This document shows positions 1 through 9,278 of a stretch of 9,278 bases of DNA, one piece after another. Made by a program: the position numbers and the translations under genes. The notes beneath the pieces are model-generated. The model saw nothing but the letters and a program-made list of their open reading frames with translations. It was not told where the DNA came from and searched no databases. The stretch spans positions 1 to 9,278 of IMG/VR virus record IMGVR_UViG_2690316243_000015, one strand, 5' to 3'. The number at the start of each line of letters is the position of its first letter. Position 1 is the stretch's first letter. The stretch comes from a virus. Taxonomy: Duplodnaviria; Heunggongvirae; Uroviricota; Caudoviricetes.

Positions 1-351
1 TCACGGCGCAGAAGTGTACCAACCGAAACTTGTTAACCCGGCATCGCAGCGCTCACGATTAAGCACACGTGGCGGGTTTTCTCTGGTCATCAACTCAAGC
101 AAGGCATTGCCTCCCTGCGTCTCTAGGCGGTATTGCCTATCGGTAGTGGTAATGGCATCCGGCAATAACTTTATGGCGGCCTGGCTAAAGTCTCGCGGTG
201 CGCCGTAAAATTGCGCATCAACAATATGAACCACATCGCCGTTAATCGTTGTCCGATAACGGTCTGGCTGTATGGTAAAGCCCCCACAATGGATAGCAGA
301 TAGTGCCGGTGCCGAGGAGATCAGGCCGGCTGCCAGAATGTATGGCTTCAT
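1..351 (-). CDS. Putative exported protein, partial (C-terminus lies beyond the window start); N-terminal signal-peptide-like segment
   Basis: ORF-track ORF 1..351; N-terminus MKPYILAAGLISSAPALSAIHC has a basic n-region, hydrophobic core and ALSA-type cleavage context. Start ATG (349-351) overlaps the stop of the upstream peptidase gene as ATGA. No recognised family. Confidence 0.4.
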   Translation of the reverse strand: MKPYILAAGLISSAPALSAIHCGGFTIQPDRYRTTINGDVVHIVDAQFYGAPRDFSQAAIKLLPDAITTTDRQYRLETQGGNALLELMTRENPPRVLNRERCDAGLTSFGWYTSAP

Positions 352-989
352 TCTTCACCCACCAATTCATCCAGTTCAGCCAGCGTCATAGGCTTTGGTA
401 CAGGCTTGTCAATATCACCCATAATGCGCTGGAAGTTGCTGGCAGGCATATGGTTACGGTTCTCCAGTATTTTCGCCAGCGCGATAACATCCCACCATTT
501 CAGGGCAATCAGCGCCTCAGCACGGGAAAGGGATATTCTCTGTATATCAGCATCCTCCCCACCAGCCACCCGGTATACCTCTGATAAATCACGAACATTT
601 TTCATGTCTGCTTTCCCGGACGTTTCCATCAGTGCGTTAATATCATCCCCCGTATAGCGTGATTGCGCGACGATACCAGCCAGAGAGATAACCATAGCCC
701 GGCATACCTGGTCTATCAGACGTAACCTGGTGTCATCATTCGAGAGGGTGTAAGACTTAACCTCAGCCACATTCCGTGGATAGTTGGCGTGCCATACCGC
801 GACAGCTCCACATTCATCAACATCGCCGCTAAGGTAGGTTTTTGCCACTCGGTTATTACCCGATAACGCAATTTCTACCTCCTGTATGCCGAAAAACCAT
901 GCGGCTATCGCATGACCTGCTTCATGTATTGCAAGATGTCTGGGCCAGCGATAGCTGCCGAACTCAATAATGATGGGTTGCGTACTCAT
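348..989 (-). CDS. HExxH zinc-metallopeptidase-like protein (FtsH/M41-like peptidase domain without an ATPase module)
   Basis: Motif AIHEAGHAIAAW resembles the FtsH YHEAGHA zinc site; downstream SLAGIVAQSRYTGDDIN loosely resembles the FtsH protease-domain LGGRAAE..TGA..D region. Start placed at ATG 987-989 (MSTQP...) because of a GAGGGAAG Shine-Dalgarno ~6 nt upstream; the ORF-track ORF extends to 1067 but that would overlap the upstream gene. Confidence 0.55.
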   Translation of the reverse strand: MSTQPIIIEFGSYRWPRHLAIHEAGHAIAAWFFGIQEVEIALSGNNRVAKTYLSGDVDECGAVAVWHANYPRNVAEVKSYTLSNDDTRLRLIDQVCRAMVISLAGIVAQSRYTGDDINALMETSGKADMKNVRDLSEVYRVAGGEDADIQRISLSRAEALIALKWWDVIALAKILENRNHMPASNFQRIMGDIDKPVPKPMTLAELDELVGEE

Positions 990-999
990 ATCTTCCCTC

Positions 1000-1434
1000 T
1001 CAGAATGGCGTTTCATCGTCGAATGGTGGGCGTTGGTCGTATTCATCACGGGATGGCTGCTGCGCACGTCTCAGCGCGTCCGTTGCCTGTCCCCGCTGTC
1101 CTGCCTTCCCGCCGGGGCGTACCGTTCTGGCGCTGATCACACTGTCGGCTACTACCTGATACCCCTGCTGTGTACCGCCGTCCTGCCCTGTCCACTGGTT
1201 GAGTTGCATATTGCCTGCCACGCTCACAAGGTCGCCTTTCTGGTGCTTTGCCAGCGCATCGGCCTGCTTCCCAAAAGCAATAACGCCCAGCCAGAAGGTT
1301 GACTCTCCCGCCTCTGCCGCATTACAGGGGAGAGACACCGCCAGCCGCGCCATAGCCATGTTGTTACCGTTCGTTGTGGTGCGGGTCTGGGGATCTGCCA
1401 CCAGCCGCCCGTATGCTGAAATTTGTGCTGTCAT
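1000..1434 (-). CDS. Divergent single-stranded DNA-binding protein (SSB-like OB fold with acidic C-terminal tail)
   Basis: Aligns by eye to E. coli SSB: [15 protein letters not shown] vs [40 protein letters not shown] vs [35 protein letters not shown] vs RKWTDQSGQ; C-terminus PPFDDETPF vs DFDDDIPF. GGAGAG Shine-Dalgarno 9 nt upstream; ATGA overlap with the upstream gene. Confidence 0.7.
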   Translation of the reverse strand: [144 protein letters not shown]

Positions 1435-1688
1435 GCTGTCTGCTCTCCGGTTTTAACGTTGATGGTTGTCACCTGTTCCGCTTCGGCAATCTCCCGTTCT
1501 GTCAGCGTGGCAAAATTTGCCGCCGCCGTTGTCATGAATGCGCTTATCAGTTCGGGATGTGCTTTTGCGTATCCTTCTCCCGTGTTGCGGTCGATGATTT
1601 TTATCGCCAACCTCAGCCAGTGCTCTGTAAGGTCAATAGTGCGGTTATGTGGTTTCTTCTGATTATTAAGTTTTCCTGATGTGTGCAT
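1431..1688 (-). CDS. Small hypothetical protein (85 aa from MHTSGK...; the ORF could start at 1748)
   Basis: ORF-track ORF 1431..1748; internal ATG at 1686-1688 has GAGGGGG ~13 nt upstream and avoids running into the iteron region. Stop overlaps the SSB start (ATGA). No recognised family. Confidence 0.45.
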   Translation of the reverse strand: MHTSGKLNNQKKPHNRTIDLTEHWLRLAIKIIDRNTGEGYAKAHPELISAFMTTAAANFATLTEREIAEAEQVTTINVKTGEQTA

Positions 1689-1737
1689 TTTTGTTTTTAC
1701 CCCCTCGTTTAAAAAGTTTTGAGTTGTACCTCCCCCC

Positions 1738-1967
1738 CCTCTACCCATCTACCCGAATGCTCCTCAGGTCAGTAATGGCGCGGCTTTCAGCGGGTAGATA
1801 GCTTTTTGGGCTCCTCTACCTGCCGTCTACCCGGCTACCTGAAATTGATAAAATCAGGTAGATGAGGTAGAGAGCTTTTGAACCCCCTCTACCTGCCATC
1901 TACCTGATATATTCTACTGAATAATATATATTTATTTACTTAAGGTAGAGGGGGGAGAGGGCTTTTG
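1738..1967. repeat. Iteron-like repeat array plus AT-rich tract; putative replication origin for the adjacent primase/helicase
   Basis: At least seven direct copies of (T)CTACC (at 1741, 1748, 1815, 1826, 1835, 1888, 1899) and four inverted GGTAGA (1793, 1857, 1866, 1944). Two ~28-bp units, GGTAGATAGCTTTTTGGGCTCCTCTACC (1793-1820) and GGTAGAGAGCTTTTGAACCCCCTCTACC (1866-1893), each carry internal inverted ends. A near-pure AT tract lies at ~1905-1943. Located in the only sizeable intergenic gap, immediately 3' of the primase gene. Confidence 0.55.
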
Positions 1968-1974
1968 CCAAAAA

Positions 1975-3729
1975 CTATAAAAACGCGTCGCAATCGTCTG
2001 TTGTTATTGCGTTAGTCTGCGTTACCCCCTTAATTTTCCGCGTAATATATTCATGTCCGTAAACTTTCGCCGCTGGCTTCATAGCTTTGCTGAACTCAGC
2101 TACGTTCAGCGGCTTGTTCCTGCCGGCATACGCCATAAACGCCAGATAGACGCGGTAAAGGCTGTTTCTGGTCGTGTACCTGGAAGAGTCACCGCCGCCG
2201 CCCATCATCAGGCCGCGTGCTTCTTCCAGAAAGTTAAGGAACTGGCAAAATTCAATAACCGGATCCGTCTGTTGCTTTATTGCCAGTGCTTCATCACCGT
2301 CACGCTGTTCCAGTAGTAAAGCCCGTGCCTTTTCAGGGTCGGCAAAGTTCGCCAGCAAGCGGCGGATAATGACTGGGATTTCAGCCGCGATTTTTTCCGG
2401 TAGTTCTCTGTCTTTTTCGGCCTCACTGACGATATTGTCGAAACGGAAAATCACGCGACGACGTGCCACGCCTCCGGCCCGTTCGGTGAATATCATCGGG
2501 TTGTTATTGGTTGCCAGCACAACCGCCCTGATTACCGCTGTGAAACGCTTCTCATATTTCGGGTTAATTTCCACGGGGTCGCCGCCAGTGATTTTCTTGA
2601 TGCCCGTGCCTTCGCCTGTATATTTCGGCTGGTCTGCCAGGACAATAAGCCGACTCCCGACAACCTGCGCACGTCCACCAGCATCATCAAGCGATGTCAT
2701 TTCAGCGCTTACCGTGTTCTGTTTCCCTGCCAGAAGGCTGGCTATGTGCGTGAAAGTGCTCTTGCCGCTCCCGCCGTCTCCGGTGGCCTCAATAAACATC
2801 TGCCAGTCGTGGCGGTTCGCCATAATCATGTACAGCGCGGCGCATATGCGCATCATCTTGTGCGGGTCTTTTCCGGCTGCATGTTCAAGCCATTTGTGGA
2901 AGTTCGGCGCGTTGTCGCGGATGTTTTCCCCTGGTACTGGTGGCGTGTATTCAATGCCGTTGTGTGTGGTGAGCCAGTTCTCCGGCTGGTGCGGTGAAAA
3001 TTCCCCCGTTATCAGGTTAAGCACACCATTGGCAAACGGCAGCAAATCACCGGACGGCTCGCCCATCGGGTCAGCAATAACTTTTAACGCTTCAACGGCG
3101 TTATTAATTGCCCGCTTGCTGAATGTGGCCCCGTGTTCTGAATAAACCGCCACCATTTCGCGGCTCAGTTCCATTGTGCTGACCGGACACCATACCCCGC
3201 CGCGCCATACGTGAACGATTTCACTTTCAGGATGCACGCAAACGCCATCAAAGCGATCGGCAAGCAGCTGCGCGCGCTCACTGTCCGCCATCTGCGAAAG
3301 TTGCGCCTTTTGCGTTACCGGAAGCTCAATCACCAGACCATCAGAAAGATTCTGGCGCTCACGGGCCAGATATTCGCGCCAGTTCTGCACCTCCTGGCCG
3401 TGCATACCCTCAGGATAAAAATTTGCATCCTGTACGCCTGCCGCCGCCAGCTTCTGACCAATCGCCTTGATCATTACAGGCTCAAGATGTCCGGCTCTGT
3501 ATATGCGTGCTGATTTTCTGCCATCCGGCACAATTTGCAGATTATCTAGTTCGGATAGCTGCTGCTCTCCAAGCCACACAGGAGGCTCATTATCTCCGGC
3601 TGTACGCGCGTCATGTTCCTGCCACTGTTTCGCGTGTGCCCAGGCATCACTACCCGCAAAAATGATCACTTCGGTTTGAGCGTGTTTTATTCCGCGTGGC
3701 TGTTTTTTTACGTTCGGTGCCAGTTTCAT
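1975..3729 (-). CDS. P4 alpha-type replication protein (phage/plasmid primase, P4-family C-terminal domain with SF3-type helicase Walker A GDGGSGKST)
   Basis: 584-aa ORF; Walker A TGDGGSGKSTF; later VVLATNNNP resembles SF3 helicase motif C; overall resemblance to P4-family primase C-terminal region. AGGGG Shine-Dalgarno 8 nt upstream; ATGA overlap with the upstream gene. Confidence 0.8.
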   Translation of the reverse strand: MKLAPNVKKQPRGIKHAQTEVIIFAGSDAWAHAKQWQEHDARTAGDNEPPVWLGEQQLSELDNLQIVPDGRKSARIYRAGHLEPVMIKAIGQKLAAAGVQDANFYPEGMHGQEVQNWREYLARERQNLSDGLVIELPVTQKAQLSQMADSERAQLLADRFDGVCVHPESEIVHVWRGGVWCPVSTMELSREMVAVYSEHGATFSKRAINNAVEALKVIADPMGEPSGDLLPFANGVLNLITGEFSPHQPENWLTTHNGIEYTPPVPGENIRDNAPNFHKWLEHAAGKDPHKMMRICAALYMIMANRHDWQMFIEATGDGGSGKSTFTHIASLLAGKQNTVSAEMTSLDDAGGRAQVVGSRLIVLADQPKYTGEGTGIKKITGGDPVEINPKYEKRFTAVIRAVVLATNNNPMIFTERAGGVARRRVIFRFDNIVSEAEKDRELPEKIAAEIPVIIRRLLANFADPEKARALLLEQRDGDEALAIKQQTDPVIEFCQFLNFLEEARGLMMGGGGDSSRYTTRNSLYRVYLAFMAYAGRNKPLNVAEFSKAMKPAAKVYGHEYITRKIKGVTQTNAITTDDCDAFL

Positions 3730-4025
3730 TTTTTACCCCTGAATGCGTTAAGCATGTTTTTCATTTCCTGAATATTTGCCCGCGCCTTTTCCCTGCTGGT
3801 GGACTGTTTGCGTGGCGCGGCCTGTACCAGCGAAAAATCACGCCGGAACTGATAAACAGGCATCACGCAATCATAGTCGTAGCCTTCACGGCGGTAAGTG
3901 ATGCGCCGTTCTGCCACGCCTTTAATCGTTACCGTACCGCCGTAGTTATCCCGGAAAATATCTCCGTGTCTGATTTCAGGCCGAGCGGGGCCGCTGGCAG
4001 TAAAGCCAGAATTTTTCTTTTTCAT
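3726..4025 (-). CDS. Small hypothetical protein (99 aa), paralogue of the 60-aa protein at 5270-5452
   Basis: Shared motif GGTVTIKGVAERRITYRREGYDYDCVMPVYQFRRDF vs GALVTVESVSHNRVTFYRDGYQSPCVQPLARFMKEF. AGGAAAA Shine-Dalgarno; stop overlaps the primase start. Confidence 0.55.
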   Translation of the reverse strand: MKKKNSGFTASGPARPEIRHGDIFRDNYGGTVTIKGVAERRITYRREGYDYDCVMPVYQFRRDFSLVQAAPRKQSTSREKARANIQEMKNMLNAFRGKK

Positions 4026-4029
4026 GGTT

Positions 4030-4230
4030 TTATTTTCCTGTCAGCAGTTCCGGTTTTATTTCCGCACGAATACAGAGTTCAGAAAAAAATTCAGGAGAAC
4101 CAACAATCTCATTACTTTTCAGTCGGCATTGTGATTTCACTTTCCCTTTATCCAGGTAAACCAGTACGCGTCCTGTATAATCTGACGGCACATTCAGCAC
4201 TACAGGTAAGTGCGCTTCATGATGATTCAT
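4030..4230 (-). CDS. Small hypothetical protein (66 aa), paralogue of the adjacent 71-aa protein
   Basis: YTGRVLVYLDKGKVKSQCRLKSNEIVGSPEFFSELCIRA aligns with FTGQLLVNVDKGRVVCNYHLPDEAIVATRESLQELAERA. GGGGGTGAG Shine-Dalgarno directly upstream of the ATG. Confidence 0.5.
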   Translation of the reverse strand: MNHHEAHLPVVLNVPSDYTGRVLVYLDKGKVKSQCRLKSNEIVGSPEFFSELCIRAEIKPELLTGK

Positions 4231-4432
4231 GTCTCACCCCCTGAATATTCGCGTTAATCATTCCGGCACGTTCTGCGAGTTCCTGTAATGATTCCCTTGT
4301 TGCGACAATTGCTTCATCTGGCAGGTGGTAATTACATACCACGCGACCTTTATCCACATTGACCAGTAGCTGCCCGGTAAATTTCTCACGAAACTGAATG
4401 CGGTTAAGGTCGGTAAGTGACAGATTAATCAT
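4217..4432 (-). CDS. Small hypothetical protein (71 aa), paralogue of the adjacent 66-aa protein
   Basis: See the paralogue alignment above; GGAGGT Shine-Dalgarno 7 nt upstream; 8-nt overlap with the upstream 283-aa gene and 14-nt overlap with the downstream 66-aa gene. Confidence 0.5.
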   Translation of the reverse strand: MINLSLTDLNRIQFREKFTGQLLVNVDKGRVVCNYHLPDEAIVATRESLQELAERAGMINANIQGVRHESS

Positions 4433-5276
4433 GGCCCACCTCCTGACGAATACGGGCGGCGAATACCATCACGCAGCCATCAGGAGATTGCTGGCGGGCT
4501 TCCTGTTCGCTGGTGGCCACGATGTGAATCACGCGCGGTTGTGCTGTGCTCAGGGCGATAAAGCGCCAGATAAAGGCAGTTTGAGAATGTATAAGGGTAG
4601 GGGTAGTAGCCATGTTGGCAGCCTCCTTCAGATAGCAGGTTACGCTACCACCGGAAACGCCAATTTCGCTGGTGGTAGCCCAGACAGGGTTGGCGTAACC
4701 GGCTCTGAAGGATACCGGCGCTTCCGAAGAAGCCCCCGCCTGAGCCACCATTGATTGACAAAGGCGCTGGATTATACACCAACGCCCAAAAAATGGGTGA
4801 GTCAGACCTACGACATAAAAAAAGACGCTCGGCGCGTCATATGTCGCCTTCAGAATTTTCAGGACGCCAATCCTGGCCCCCGTTTTATGAGGTGCCTTAT
4901 AACCATAAACCGTGTTGCCGCATAACGGCAAGCTCTTTTTTATGGACTCCGAAAACTCACTATTGGAAGAACCAGAGGCACAGTACATCGCGCTCATTTC
5001 GTTAACGTTGCGCATGCGGACGAAGATTTTTGTGGAGTCACTACGCGAGCAGAACAGGTCATCTACGACCAGAAATTCTCTGGCGCAGCCGCTGACCTTC
5101 TCAACGCTAATATCATCGCCCGAGATTTCTGGCATGGTTAAGGCATCCGTTCCGACCACCAGCAAATGATAAACTTTGTTTGTATCTGCTGTATTAATGC
5201 CTGACTTTGCCGCCATATTGCTGGATTTTGGCGACATGCCAGCCAGTGAAAATATCTTCTTCTGGGCGGTTAGCAT
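4425..5276 (-). CDS. Hypothetical protein (283 aa), function unknown
   Basis: Long ORF with GGAGG Shine-Dalgarno 7 nt upstream of the ATG at 5274-5276; start overlaps the stop of the upstream small gene (ATGCTAA). No motif I can assign with confidence. Confidence 0.6.
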
Positions 5277-5452
5277 TTGTTAACCTCCGCGAACTCCTTC
5301 ATGAAACGTGCCAGCGGTTGCACGCATGGCGATTGATACCCGTCGCGATAAAACGTCACTCGGTTGTGAGACACGCTTTCGACAGTAACGAGTGCTCCGT
5401 GGGCATCTTTGTAGCGTTTTTGAGGTTGTGGTGTTCCTGTCGGCTTAAACAT
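5270..5452 (-). CDS. Small hypothetical protein (60 aa from MFKPTG...), paralogue of the 99-aa protein at 3726-4025
   Basis: ORF-track ORF extends to 5539, but the ATG at 5450-5452 has GGAGG 7 nt upstream and overlaps the AntA stop (ATGTTTAA), whereas the longer form would overlap AntA by ~95 nt. Shares the TFYRDGY..C..P..F motif with the 99-aa protein. Confidence 0.5.
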   Translation of the reverse strand: MFKPTGTPQPQKRYKDAHGALVTVESVSHNRVTFYRDGYQSPCVQPLARFMKEFAEVNKC

Positions 5453-6254
5453 GGACCGCCTCCAGACGCTTAGCGAGCCAGCGTTGCGACAGGCGGGTGA
5501 GTTCTCCTTTGCGCTGCTCATATTCCATGCCCATATCAATTAACGTGATATTGGTGCTTTCGAGATAGGCGAGGTGTTCAAGCTGTGCTGCGTTCATGCT
5601 GTCCCGTGGTTCGCCAGTAATGCCATTTGCCTGCGCCCACTGCTTCGCCGTCATGCCACCCAGCACGATACGGGCGATCATGTTGCTCTCGTTGCTGTAG
5701 TGGCGCTGCTGCGTCGTTTTGCCCATCTCGGCACGGGCCATATTCAGCGCATCGCACATTGGCTTAAAGTTGTTTGCGGCACTGAGACGGGCTTTTAGCT
5801 GGCGACGATAGCGGGCGGCGATTTCAGGCACGCTACGCTGTAATTCTTCCTCGCACTGGATGAAATAACGGCGGATAGCGCGGCCCTGCTCGTTGCGTTC
5901 AACCATTGCCACTTCTTTAGCCATATCCAGCGATAGCAGGTAATCATGCTCTATTTGCTGGCGAGTTTTTGCGCTCGCCCGTTTTGGCGTGCTCAAATTT
6001 TCAACACGGATAAAATCGGTTCCGGCAATAAAACCGTACTGGTCAATTCGGACTTTAATCCAGTTAGTAAAGTCGCGGCCCACCCCCAGCGCTTTATGCA
6101 ACGCCTTAGCGCTCACAATATTGGCTTCACGCCCGCCAATGCGTCCGGCAATAACGGGAACAATAGCGGCAAAGTCGTTGCCGTTAATTACTCCCGTGTT
6201 AACGTTGGGTTGCGGGGCGGCCCCCGAACTGAATCGGCTTTTTTCGATAGTCAT
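5445..6254 (-). CDS. AntA/AntB-family phage antirepressor-like protein
   Basis: SAKALHKALGVGRDFTNWIKVRIDQYGFIAGTDF and LSLDMAKEVAMVERNEQGRAIRRYFIQCEE match the conserved AntA-domain signature as I recall it. Start placed at ATG 6252-6254 (MTIEK...) with GGAG 8 nt upstream; the ORF-track start at 6314 would overlap the upstream gene. Confidence 0.6.
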   Translation of the reverse strand: MTIEKSRFSSGAAPQPNVNTGVINGNDFAAIVPVIAGRIGGREANIVSAKALHKALGVGRDFTNWIKVRIDQYGFIAGTDFIRVENLSTPKRASAKTRQQIEHDYLLSLDMAKEVAMVERNEQGRAIRRYFIQCEEELQRSVPEIAARYRRQLKARLSAANNFKPMCDALNMARAEMGKTTQQRHYSNESNMIARIVLGGMTAKQWAQANGITGEPRDSMNAAQLEHLAYLESTNITLIDMGMEYEQRKGELTRLSQRWLAKRLEAVHV

Positions 6255-6267
6255 ATTTTCGGCTCCG

Positions 6268-6699
6268 TTATGCGGCGGTGAGATTGTCCGGGTATAGATT
6301 GAGAATGTCGGCAATTTCAGGCTGAGAAAGTCCCTGATAGCCGCCAGCGTCGGCGTTATGGTTCACAAGCCGAATAACTTTTAGAACGTCACCGCGCCCG
6401 GTAAAGCGATAGCGTAAATGTGACCCTATCCCGTCGGGGTTCTTTTCGTCTATACGCTCAAGCTGAATATCAAGCCTGCGCTCTAACTCGCTGGCGTAGT
6501 TCCTTCCAGACGAAAGGCGGCAATAACGCAGAATGTCATTTTCTGTCCATCCCTCTATACCAGTACGCAGCATATAGACTCTGGCACGATGCTTTTTCGG
6601 TGTGCGCTTTGGTGCTTGAAGGGATTTTGTAAGGGGCGTAACATCAGATACGCGAATATCTGAATTAGCCGCCTGTAATGGGCGGTTTTTCTTTTCCAT
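6268..6699 (-). CDS. Hypothetical protein (143 aa), basic N-terminus, function unknown
   Basis: ORF with AAGGTGG Shine-Dalgarno; its ATG overlaps the AlpA stop by 1 nt (TGATG), indicating co-translation with alpA. No recognised family. Confidence 0.5.
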   Translation of the reverse strand: MEKKNRPLQAANSDIRVSDVTPLTKSLQAPKRTPKKHRARVYMLRTGIEGWTENDILRYCRLSSGRNYASELERRLDIQLERIDEKNPDGIGSHLRYRFTGRGDVLKVIRLVNHNADAGGYQGLSQPEIADILNLYPDNLTAA

Positions 6700-6902
6700 C
6701 AGGCCACCTTCCCGCGGCGTTCTGCCAGCCAGTTGTGAATCTCAACCGCATCAAACGCAGTTATTTTTTCTCCCAGCTTTACCGGACGTGGTAGTGAACC
6801 GTTTCTTACTTTACGGTCGATGGTGGATACACTAACGCCCAGCAATTCAGCCAGGCGGAAGCGTCTGATATAGCCTTTTGTAGGGATAGTGTCGATGTTC
6901 AT
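6699..6902 (-). CDS. alpA: AlpA/Vis-family transcriptional regulator / excision accessory protein (MerR-like HTH)
   Basis: 67 aa; IRRFRLAELLGVSVSTIDRKVRNGSLPRPVKLGEKITAFDAVEIHNWL fits the AlpA (CP4-57 regulatory protein) pattern of an HTH followed by P.P.KLG and a conserved W. Typical size and position next to a P4-type integrase. Confidence 0.8.
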   Translation of the reverse strand: MNIDTIPTKGYIRRFRLAELLGVSVSTIDRKVRNGSLPRPVKLGEKITAFDAVEIHNWLAERRGKVA

Positions 6903-6985
6903 GATTCCCGTAACCTCTTAGCGATAGTTGTTGCTTCGTTACGGGTATTTAATGGCGTGCACGCTCAAAAAGGAATGATCGTATT

Positions 6986-7028
6986 TTTTACTATCGTGAT
7001 AGTAAAATTTACTATCACCTTTTTTTCC
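6986..7028. promoter_or_regulatory. Perfect 23-bp palindrome GTGATAGTAAAATTTACTATCAC (6996-7018) with an extra TACTATC half-site (6989-6995), followed by a T7 run; operator-like site or terminator
   Basis: Direct reading: three TACTATC/GATAGTA half-sites centred ~10-11 bp apart; lies ~95-125 nt upstream of the alpA ATG and overlaps the stop codon of the 282-aa gene. Confidence 0.4.
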
Positions 7029-7863
7029 CTGCCGTGGTGCGTTCTTCCGGTGTTCTGTCTGCGTCGGCTATGAGTTTCTTCAGGTAATCTATGGATGGCT
7101 CATCATAGCCGCCCCCCAAAAGCGCCCAGTGGTTTATTGTGGCGTTCGCCCATGCTTCGTTGGTTTCCTTCCCGTTCTTCCCTTTACACTCTTCTGGGTA
7201 GTGCCGCTTCACATAAATCAACGCCAAGAGGCAAATTTCGCGCTTTTGCCTGTGGCGCTCTCTGTTTCCGTGCTCAACGTTTTTAACATCCTCATAAAGA
7301 GCTTGTAAGTTTATGCGAGTTTCGGGGCTGTATATGGGCTGGTTTTTGTCCATGCATTCGCCGATATATTCAACCCACGGCCTTGTTATGTACAAATCCT
7401 CTACGGATATTTCGTGGAAGGCATGTTTTGTATAATCGAGAAAAAAATAATAATTCGCACTTACGTCTAGTTCTCTTTTTCTGTGTGCGGGGCTGAATAT
7501 GCGTGCGGGAGTGTCAATAGAATCAAGCCCTGCGATGTCGAGTATATAGGAGGCGTTAACATGCCATAGCCCAAGCACATGGCAATCTATATGATTTACA
7601 ACGCCTGCCTTAAAGCTTTTTTCGTCCTCTACTTCAGTGATTATGTCGGCAAGTAATAAGCAGTCTTCTTTGACGTCTGGGAATAAAGAGCAATTGCGGT
7701 AAAGACTCGCGATGCTATGTAATGTGCCGTCGTAGCCGCAAAGGTACGCGCTCAAATATATAGATTCTGCCGCCGCCATAATCAAAAGATCATCAATATC
7801 TATTTCTAATAATTCGGCTGCTCTGTTAAGCCTGAAAAAAGGGGCGGGTGGTAATTTTTTCAT
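7015..7863 (-). CDS. Hypothetical protein (282 aa); AT-rich orphan gene between int and alpA
   Basis: Intact ORF with AAGGTG Shine-Dalgarno 7 nt upstream. Hand GC counts on three 60-nt lines inside it give ~35-43%, against ~60% for sampled lines in int and the primase. No recognised catalytic motif. Confidence 0.6.
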   Translation of the reverse strand: MKKLPPAPFFRLNRAAELLEIDIDDLLIMAAAESIYLSAYLCGYDGTLHSIASLYRNCSLFPDVKEDCLLLADIITEVEDEKSFKAGVVNHIDCHVLGLWHVNASYILDIAGLDSIDTPARIFSPAHRKRELDVSANYYFFLDYTKHAFHEISVEDLYITRPWVEYIGECMDKNQPIYSPETRINLQALYEDVKNVEHGNRERHRQKREICLLALIYVKRHYPEECKGKNGKETNEAWANATINHWALLGGGYDEPSIDYLKKLIADADRTPEERTTAGKKR

Positions 7864-7958
7864 TGCGTCACCTTTTACGCTGCGCCTTATTTTGTGATTG
7901 AGCCAGGCGGTAAGGCTTCCCGCTTTTCGCCCCGTCGAGCTAGGCTCAATCTATTCAG

Positions 7959-9278
7959 TTAGTTCGCCCTTCTGAGAGGCGTTACGTTGTAGTCTTTTCC
8001 GCTTTCCAGTGCCACCAGCAGATCAGCCCACTGTGCCAGTGCTGCTTTACGCTCATCAAAATACTGATGGCGGTTATAAATCCCCTCTACGCCCTTAATG
8101 CGATGATTGAGGCATCGTTCCGCCACAACAGGATCAACACCCAACGCTGCTAAATGAGTACGTGCGGTGCGTCGAAAGTCGTGAATCGTGAAATTAGGCA
8201 CATCCGGCATTTCGGCGCGAACCTTAGCCAGTGCTACGGGTAAAGTGCTTTCCTGAATATGTGGGATCATTCTGTTTTGCATCTTCCTGGCCGGAAGCAC
8301 CCATGCGCTATTACATGAAAAGGTGTGTAGCTCTCTCAACCATTCAACGGCTGGGGAAGGTAGAGGTATATCAATAGGGTCTCCGTTTTTGCTGCGTTCT
8401 TCCGGCAAATGCCATACCGCACCATCTAAATCAAACTCTTCCCATCGTGCGGCGCATAATTCCATTTTGCGGACGCATAACGCTAACAGTAATTTGAACG
8501 TGATTTCGTTCTGGCGACTGAATCCCTTAGCCGTGCGCATGGCTTTGAATAGCTGGATTAACTCATCGCGGGTTAACCAGCGGTCACGGGCAGCTTCTTT
8601 CCCTCCGGCGTCTGCCACCTCAAAGGCTGAACAGGGGTTAATCTCTAGCGCGTGCCGTTTGATTCCGTAGTCGAATATGCGGCGCGTCCATCTCAGCACG
8701 TCCGTTGCTATGGTCGGCGCTCCACGGTCAACAATACCTTTCAGCATGTCATCGATATGGCGCGGTTTCACGTCCTCTACCTTCATGCTGCCAATGCAGG
8801 GGTTTATATCTTTGTCGATACGGCGGCGGAGTATATCGGGGTGCTTCCAGCGCGGGAGGATCTGACGCTCAAAGTATTCAGCGGCAAGCTCTGAAACGCG
8901 CATAGCGTTCTTCTCTGCTTCCATCTTCGCCAGTGCTTCGGTTTTGCGCTTCTGCTTCTCTCCTGCAACGTCATAGCCCAGCGCAACGCGAGCCGATAGC
9001 TCTTTGGCTGTCTCTCTGGCCTTTGATAGTGATAGCTCGCTATACGAACCAATTAGCATGGCGCGGGACTTCCCTGCGAGTTTATAGCGGAATCTCCATG
9101 TGGGGGTTTTGTCGGCTTCACGGTAACGTAGGTATAAACCGTTACCGTCTGCCCGCCCCTCGAATCGCTCTCCGCTCTTAATCCATGCGCGGATCTGCAT
9201 GTCTGTTAGTTTTGGCATTTTGCGAATATCCAAACTTTGAATAGGGGGTGTACCCAAAGCAATGTACCCAAACCTCAT
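7959..9278 (-). CDS. int: Tyrosine site-specific integrase (P4-like); 5' end at or beyond the window edge
   Basis: C-terminal catalytic region with HDFRRTARTHL (HxxR) and terminal IYNRHQYFDER (candidate catalytic Tyr); N-terminal region typical of phage integrase arm-binding domains. The ORF reaches the window edge at 9278; an internal ATG at 9216-9218 (MPKLTDMQIRAW...) is a plausible true start but has no clear Shine-Dalgarno. Confidence 0.9.
   Translation of the reverse strand: MRFGYIALGTPPIQSLDIRKMPKLTDMQIRAWIKSGERFEGRADGNGLYLRYREADKTPTWRFRYKLAGKSRAMLIGSYSELSLSKARETAKELSARVALGYDVAGEKQKRKTEALAKMEAEKNAMRVSELAAEYFERQILPRWKHPDILRRRIDKDINPCIGSMKVEDVKPRHIDDMLKGIVDRGAPTIATDVLRWTRRIFDYGIKRHALEINPCSAFEVADAGGKEAARDRWLTRDELIQLFKAMRTAKGFSRQNEITFKLLLALCVRKMELCAARWEEFDLDGAVWHLPEERSKNGDPIDIPLPSPAVEWLRELHTFSCNSAWVLPARKMQNRMIPHIQESTLPVALAKVRAEMPDVPNFTIHDFRRTARTHLAALGVDPVVAERCLNHRIKGVEGIYNRHQYFDERKAALAQWADLLVALESGKDYNVTPLRRAN

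Follow-up and report, generated by a model that had tools for sequence, protein, structure and literature searches.

The iteron-bearing spacer 3' of the initiator gene as replication origin of an EcCICFT073-type PICI

The DNA analyzed here (hereafter the window) is a stretch of 9,278 nucleotides from a virus record of the class Caudoviricetes (IMG/VR record IMGVR_UViG_2690316243_000015, positions 1 to 9,278). All of its long ORFs lie on the - strand, and in the coding direction the gene order is int, alpA, DUF4222, the gene of a 584-aa initiator, a spacer, an 85-aa ORF and SSB. The integrase gene (7959-9278) is situated at one end and the AlpA gene (PF05930) at 6699-6902, while AntA, Ash and DUF4222 proteins are also encoded. 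No structural genes were found in the 13.7-kb locus L007, which stops short of the island's far end, the window itself covering 9.3 kb. The spacer between the initiator gene and the start of the next gene at 1688 measures 286 bp (1689-1974) and contains an array of short repeats next to an A+T-rich tract (Table 1). With all genes on the - strand, the coding direction puts the array on the 3' side of the initiator gene, which agrees with the position assigned to it in a preliminary description of this DNA. The gene that follows the spacer can also be called at 105 aa (1431-1748), but this longer version probably extends the conserved 85-aa ORF too far. This call depends on an 8-nt form of the G/C homopolymer in 1730-1748; the run has 7 nt in the related loci L008 and L010, and the shorter form breaks the extension.

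Table 1. Features of the spacer and of the neighboring genes (window coordinates).
Feature	Positions	Strand	Details
SSB, island-encoded	1000-1434	-	Pfam SSB, E = 5.6e-17; syntenic in EcCICFT073
85-aa ORF, first gene after the origin	1431-1688	-	annotation of relatives likewise gives 85 aa
Leader and ribosome-binding site (GAGGGGG) of the 85-aa ORF	1689-1729	-	near-invariant in alignments
Distal iteron pair, TCTACC at 1740 and 1748	1740-1753	+	C run at 1730-1739 ahead of it on the + strand
G+C-rich conserved block CGCTGAAAGCCGCGCCATTACTG, non-iteron	1770-1792	-	column identity 0.96
Second iteron unit	1793-1839	.	one - copy at 1793-1798; three + copies at 1815, 1826 and 1834 (GCTACC)
Short second A+T-rich spacer TGAAATTGATAAAATCA, separating iteron groups	1840-1856	.	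sequence and composition profile
Palindromic iteron unit	1857-1904	.	TCTACC on + at 1888 and 1899, on - at 1857-1862 and 1866-1871; spacer with AAAAGC
AT-rich tract, predicted DNA-unwinding element	1905-1943	.	least stable 40-mer; flanking iterons in opposed orientation
Initiator-proximal iteron pair	1944-1958	-	reads CTCTCCC CCTCTACC; perfect copy 1944-1949, degenerate TCTCCC 1953-1958
Initiator gene 'Pri-Rep', 584 aa	1975-3729	-	D5_N, SF3-helicase P-loop (DUF5906), C-terminal Pox_D5/P4-alpha-type origin-binding domain at aa 487-576 (Pfam)

Structural searches supported the domain assignment of the initiator. Residues 226-432 match the PriRep helicase of SaPI5 (PDB 7OLA, E = 2.5e-13), and residues 488-576 match the origin-binding domain of P4 alpha (PDB 1KA8, E = 1.2e-5, 33% identity). 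Neither of the primase domains, Zn-ribbon and Toprim, was detected by Pfam in the 584-aa protein, while both are present in a 797-aa Xenorhabdus homologue; the 583-aa KppS-Ant protein likewise lacks them. The N-terminal 150 residues of the initiator (window 3280-3729) gave no match in Pfam or NCBIfam. The gene had been introduced as a primase/helicase; the helicase and origin-binding domains are present. Given the lack of a recognizable primase domain, "primase" is to be taken as a name and the host primase may be needed. The missing domain also counts as a point against the explanation that we prefer below.

Comparison of the island with known satellites identified it as an E. coli/Shigella PICI of the EcCICFT073 group that carries its replication origin in the spacer. 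It is not a P4-like satellite. PICIs of this lineage are ~12-15 kb in size and have neither lysis nor tail genes of phages. EcCICFT073 is the model Gram-negative PICI, and its helper-phage-dependent induction, excision and packaging have been demonstrated (Fillol-Salom et al., 2018, ISME J, PMC6092414). In CFT073 the island is found between roxA and phoQ and comprises int, alpA, DUF4222, a 584-aa primase-family protein, a spacer, an 85-aa ORF, SSB, PerC and capsid. Its Pri-Rep is 94% identical to the initiator of the window, and its spacer (288 bp compared to 286 bp) aligns end to end with ours, including the TCTACC/GGTAGA iterons, the AT tract, the G+C-rich block and the leader. The two islands differ in the integrase, the att site and the cargo, since the window represents a yicC-side type with no capsid genes within 13.7 kb. 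Moreover, the spacer of the window is ~79-88% identical to its E. coli relatives, and it has an extra iteron at 1888-1893 as well as a mutated proximal iteron. Several assemblies of the E. coli/Shigella type encode exactly this initiator, and E. coli and Shigella very commonly have proteins with 95-96% identity to it. Among 5426 complete E. coli genomes, megablast with the spacer gave matches in 499; these relatives are chromosomal every time and sit in islands with terS and capsid genes. A search of genome contigs with a single protein as the query returned 2 loci. Placing the island in the EcCICFT073 group with its origin marked should be of help for annotation and for satellite-finding pipelines.

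Within the spacer, CTACC occurs seven times on the + strand (1741, 1749, 1816, 1827, 1835, 1889, and 1900) and four times on the - strand (1793, 1857, 1866, and 1944), which confirms the earlier count of at least seven direct CTACC and four inverted GGTAGA copies. Ten of these 11 repeats have the hexamer form TCTACC and one reads GCTACC (1834), with an extended consensus of CCnTCTACCYG; outside the spacer there are three TCTACC/GGTAGA hexamers in the whole window. A degenerate twelfth copy, TCTCCC, is located between the AT tract and the stop codon of the initiator, and the distance from this stop codon to the first repeat is 17 nt. Both this copy (1953-1958) and the conserved block at 1770-1792 had been overlooked in the preliminary description. 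The start-to-start distances of the repeats (8, 45, 22, 11, 8, 23, 9, 22, 11, 45, and 9) form a near-symmetric series, in which one of the two 45-bp gaps corresponds to the AT tract and the other to the G+C-rich conserved block. The two units of 28 bp with complementary ends that were noted before are indeed present, namely GGTAGATAGCTTTTTGGGCTCCTCTACC at 1793-1820 and GGTAGAGAGCTTTTGAACCCCCTCTACC at 1866-1893, and they extend to 39-nt direct repeats with 82% identity. In addition, an inverted repeat of 17 nt (94% complementary) brackets the array, pairing the side of the distal pair with 1944-1960.

The stretch 1905-1943, described earlier as near-pure AT, contains 34 A+T among its 39 positions (87%). 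Of the 9239 40-mers of the window, 1904-1943 forms the duplex of lowest stability (nearest-neighbor dG -37.5 compared to a mean of -56.0 kcal/mol; z = 4.7). The repeats are unevenly distributed on the two sides of this tract, with 2 copies on one and 10 on the other, a lopsidedness that counts against an origin model. The clustering itself is far from random: the 11 CTACC/GGTAG cores fall within 208 bp (1741-1948), compared to 14 across the remaining ~9.07 kb of the window (Poisson P ~8e-14, with the window's own background as the rate), and in 1000 dinucleotide-preserving shuffles no 210-bp stretch contained more than 4 CTACC copies.

Origins of this kind have been published. In Gram-negative PICIs the origin was reported to follow the replication gene (pri-rep) directly on its 3' side, an AT-rich tract there being flanked by iterons (Fillol-Salom et al., 2018). 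A ts plasmid with rep and ori of EcCICFT073 formed colonies at 44 C, while a rep mutant formed none; deletion of ori resulted in significantly fewer colonies at 44 C, i.e., in a reduction rather than abolition. On the plasmid tested, rep was driven by an arabinose promoter (PMC6092414). We mapped the supplementary primers of that study on CFT073 and found that the pri-delta-ori insert ends 4 nt past the stop codon of Pri-Rep, while the pri-ori insert ends ~20 nt inside the 85-aa ORF. The "ori" tested is therefore exactly the spacer orthologous to window positions ~1668-1971. The origin for an alpha-type initiator that had been proposed for the window thus has a positional and sequence orthologue whose deletion was examined on a conditional plasmid, and the experiment suggested for it, namely whether the fragment supports initiator-dependent replication, has in effect been done on a system with a 94% identical initiator.

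Other functions could be considered for such a cluster. A packaging (cos/pac) or recombination site might come to mind because satellites possess cos/pac sites and because the single-stranded DNA of the region has a strong fold (z = -6.1), although neither point is specific. However, a strong single-strand fold is what inverted iterons produce, no Rfam family matches in the spacer, and the strain list of EcCICFT073 (supplement of PMC6092414) includes separate delta-cos.1 and delta-cos.2 mutants beside the pri-ori and pri-delta-ori constructs. A chance or low-complexity cluster is ruled out by the shuffles and the Poisson probability. This whole group of explanations is scarcely credible. Since the repeat cluster and the AT tract are far beyond chance, and given the synteny with EcCICFT073 and the tested orthologue, we are highly confident that the island, a PICI of the EcCICFT073 type, uses the spacer 1689-1974 as its only vegetative replication origin. 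The identification as an origin is correct and the type of origin is already known, being of a published kind with a tested orthologue; in the literature searched we found no study of this origin beyond that of Fillol-Salom et al. (2018).

The conservation of the repeats was assessed in the 330 nt 3' of the initiator stop codon, which were taken from 90 loci and yielded 68 distinct sequences with a median pairwise identity of 0.71. All 68 carry 7-13 CTACC/GGTAG cores at the same place and in the same orientation, while the intervening sequence drifts (column identity of 0.90 for the cores compared to 0.77 for the remainder). The position of the array immediately 3' of the initiator gene is shared by these 68 close relatives and by 22 more distant ones. 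Conservation of the repeat consensus in related islands had been named as a check on the proposed origin, and their absence from syntenic relatives as an observation that would speak against it; all of the relatives compared keep them. At 9 of the 12 sites the exact core is kept in at least 61 of the 68 relatives. The distal pair (1740 and 1748) is kept in 66, as are sites 1793, 1816, and 1827, while sites 1857 and 1866 are kept in at least 61. Site 1900 is found in 55 relatives when a 1-nt alignment offset is permitted, site 1889 in 37 (it is missing from the EcCICFT073/Nissle subtype) and site 1835 in 27. A perfect CTACC at 1953-1958 is present in 65 of the 68 relatives, indicating that the A-to-C change observed here is a derived point mutation. 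The TCTCCC variant recurs in the independent assemblies L007, L008, and L010, which carry the identical initiator. With one of its two initiator-proximal copies mutated, the island's allele of the origin could be weakened.

The array is situated directly upstream of the next gene, whose 40-nt leader (1689-1729) is strongly conserved, and plasmid initiators such as P1 RepA autoregulate via iterons that overlap the repA promoter, according to its annotation. The repeats might thus be mainly operators, through which the initiator or another island protein controls transcription into the 85-aa ORF, SSB and the cargo, a role that would be compatible with that of an origin. As the main function of the repeats we regard it as improbable. 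A scan of 1400-2200 revealed no sigma-70-like promoter on the coding strand, and the promoter of the SSB operon that had been expected in this region was consequently not recovered. No terminator-like site follows the initiator stop codon in the spacer. The counts from the scan equal those of shuffles, and the genes of these islands are unidirectional, with AlpA activating from upstream. Given the lack of a terminator and the one-way transcription under AlpA, read-through suffices and a promoter in the spacer is not required. Furthermore, deletion of the orthologous spacer affects replication of a plasmid whose rep is under an arabinose promoter.

P4 offers another point of comparison, as its alpha protein has a C-terminal origin-binding domain homologous to that of the initiator and its crr element lies immediately 3' of alpha, where short (type-1) repeats of either orientation surround an A-rich tract. 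By analogy, the array could be a crr-like auxiliary cis element with initiation taking place elsewhere, as in P4. This appears very improbable, because a second TCTACC cluster is absent from the window, L007, L008 and the complete EcCICFT073, each of these islands having one cluster, and because the pri-ori fragment of EcCICFT073 alone sustains a conditional plasmid (PMC6092414). A second cluster of CTACC at 4596-4678 was considered and discarded, as it consists of the stem of a C4-type antisense RNA and coding sequence, with no TCTACC hexamers. In P4, by contrast, there are two separated cis elements, with ori 4.5 kb from crr. The P4 repeats are of the TGTTCACC type, as confirmed in the P4 record, and no TGTTCA is present in the spacer of the window. 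In addition, a terminator lies between alpha and crr in P4, while none was seen in the window, and the 777-aa alpha is expected to contain the Zn-ribbon and Toprim domains that the 584-aa protein lacks. Judged by sequence comparison, its mode of operation corresponds to that of SaPI/PICI origins and not to that of the bipartite origin of P4.

The array is also accompanied by a link between initiator and repeat type, which together with the cross-replicon block discussed below constitutes the residual interest beyond the known origin. In the distant homologues examined, each initiator gene has an iteron array within 330 nt 3' of its stop codon, and the type of repeat follows the C-terminal domain. 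Loci of the TCTACC class (10-12 copies) encode C-terminal 100 aa that are 54-100% identical to those of the window's initiator and 28-34% identical to P4 alpha, whereas in the TGTTCA(CC) class (7-9 copies) the same region is 38-50% identical to P4 alpha. A GTATACA class (6-7 copies) is represented by two loci, L299 and L301. When the C-terminal ~25 aa of these two proteins are compared to those of L296, a neighbor of the ATGAACAC class, the main difference is KERKTRGVV compared to KERRARGMV or KERKNRGMV. The wing segment, which reads TRKIKGVTQ in the initiator of the window, is thus a candidate determinant of iteron specificity. An origin specificity distinct from that of P4 had been claimed for the window, and the claim is correct, because the repeat type tracks the C-terminal domain, with relatives whose domain is closer to P4 alpha carrying TGTTCACC-type repeats at the same place, and because there is a single cluster and not a bipartite arrangement. 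The non-P4 specificity is supported and already known. The comparative table of initiator C-terminal domains and iteron types (TCTACC, TGTTCACC, and GTATACA) is a by-product that may be of use.

Similarities to the origins of SaPIs are more extensive (PMC9371898). These are also located immediately 3' of rep and contain 6-12 penta- or hexanucleotide iterons, compared to 11 exact and 1 degenerate in the window, and they have an AT-rich center with at least two oppositely oriented iterons per side. In the window, the AT tract is flanked on one side by the copies at 1888 and 1899 and on the other, in opposed orientation, by the perfect copy at 1944-1949 and the 1-mismatch copy at 1953-1958, where 65 of the 68 relatives have two perfect ones. 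SaPI Rep recognizes its iterons through a winged-helix C-terminal domain and shares a homologous helicase core with the initiator (PDB 7OLA). The SaPI origins differ in their iteron sequences, and the layout of the window is asymmetric and belongs to a Gram-negative host and lineage. Binding and melting have been demonstrated for SaPI Rep and are predicted for the family of the window.

Based on these similarities, a course of initiation can be outlined. Following induction by a helper phage, the island would express the 584-aa initiator, and its C-terminal winged-helix domain would bind the TCTACC iterons, as suggested by the homology to P4 alpha and SaPI Rep and by the comparative data. SF3 helicase hexamers would assemble on the opposed iteron pairs around the 39-bp AT tract, melt the tract and load themselves as a double hexamer, a step predicted from homology, the comparative data and duplex thermodynamics. 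The strands would be coated by the island's own SSB, and priming would be carried out either by the N-terminal 150 aa of the initiator or by the host primase.

Across the 68 sequences, conservation within the origin is highest in the G+C-rich block, which is not an iteron. When it was compared to a phage collection by blastn, the same 23-24 nt turned up in lambdoid and P22-like phages, within the genes of replication protein O and at the place of their origins. In Sf6 the block is part of the annotated rep_origin, between 3 + 3 GTTGGACA repeats, and shows 1 change from the PICI form, while in JEP4 and many prophages it lies between CATGTGCGG repeats, the JEP4 copy being identical to the PICI form. 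In contig L144 it adjoins CTACACATAT repeats and an A-rich tract, and in L289 it occurs with TGTTCAC iterons. In oriR of P1-like phage-plasmids such as SJ46, a close variant, GCTGTAAGCCGCGCCATTTCTGG, separates the GATC repeats from the iterons; this variant aligns with the G+C-rich core of P1/P7 oriR, GTTGCAGGCCGCGCCACGTCTGG. The block was also found in a Klebsiella plasmid-borne PICI remnant and near the RepB gene of a Moraxella plasmid, and it is diverged in some TCTACC-class origins (L283-L286). The common pattern, beside iteron arrays, is G-YTG-nnn-GCCGCGCCA-nnn-CTGG. As in the PICIs, the block stands next to iteron arrays at the center of the O-gene origins of lambdoid phages (Sf6, JEP4, HK75, and the Stx2a-phage) and in the G+C-rich core next to the iterons of P1/P7 oriR. 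However, the lambda O-type initiator and its iterons are unrelated to those of the PICIs, and the block is inside a coding region there. RepA and the iterons of the P1 family are equally unrelated, and the DnaA boxes and GATC repeats of that family are absent from the PICI origin.

It could be argued that phages keep the block merely for the encoded SNGAA(F/L)S. This was rejected, as the O proteins of Sf6 and JEP4 are 23% identical, yet 22 of 23 nt are the same; since the block is moreover non-coding in PICIs, its conservation is at the DNA level. The notion that the block always resides within an iteron array was also abandoned, because in the IMG/VR contigs L131 and L184 it lies near lysis and terminase genes with no obvious repeats beside it. 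Inspection by eye in and around the block gave no convincing match to a DnaA box, IHF, Fis, a LexA box, sigma-54 or boxA. A LexA-box-like TACTG-N10-CAGTA beside the block of EcCICFT073 (TACTGGCATGGTGGCCAGTA, L092 11205-11235) is missing in the window and in Nissle and is therefore probably coincidental.

Tentatively, the block may be a portable, sequence-specific origin element that is shared by unrelated initiators, i.e., Pri-Rep with TCTACC or TGTTCAC, lambdoid O with at least three iteron types, RepA of the P1 family and possibly the Moraxella RepB, and that is read by a common host factor, delimits opening or positions priming. Its possible roles would include binding of a host factor, limiting how far the strands open, or, in view of the invariant CTGG, signaling where priming occurs. 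In the literature searched, no paper was found to contain the block sequence. A review, in the part that cites the P1 origin study of Brendler et al. (1991), mentions G+C-rich flanks of the A+T-rich stretches of the origin and leaves their role unclear. That the P1 core stretch is homologous to phage and satellite origins seems to have escaped notice so far. If functional, the block would represent a cis-element common to enterobacterial origins that are otherwise unrelated, and it would offer a starting point for explaining the G+C-rich core of P1 oriR.

Some further observations concern the gene content of the island and its relatives. The identical initiator and origin are found with different integrases and att sites, either beside yicC or beside a LysM/M23 peptidase gene (L007 compared to L008/L010). 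The cargo after the 85-aa ORF differs as well, with a 144-aa SSB and unknown ORFs in the former and a 115-aa SSB, ProQ and PerC in the latter. Judging from these comparisons, the replication module seems to behave as an exchangeable cassette. On the - strand of the window, Rfam matches above the gathering score were obtained for C4 antisense RNA (4668-4755, 79.9 bits), the Hfq-binding RNA isrK (4818-4895, 62.9 bits) and int-alpA RNA (7884-7950, 60.6 bits), the first two of which fall within the 283-aa 'Ash' ORF (4425-5276). In combination with AntA and with Icd-like genes that are annotated in related islands, these RNAs recall the immI module (c4-icd-ant) of P1. Finally, a 239-aa ORF at 348-1067 (- strand) has no family match and contains the motif HEAGHA (LAIHEAGHAIAAW), a HExxH signature of zinc metalloproteases, and it is possibly an accessory or defence gene.
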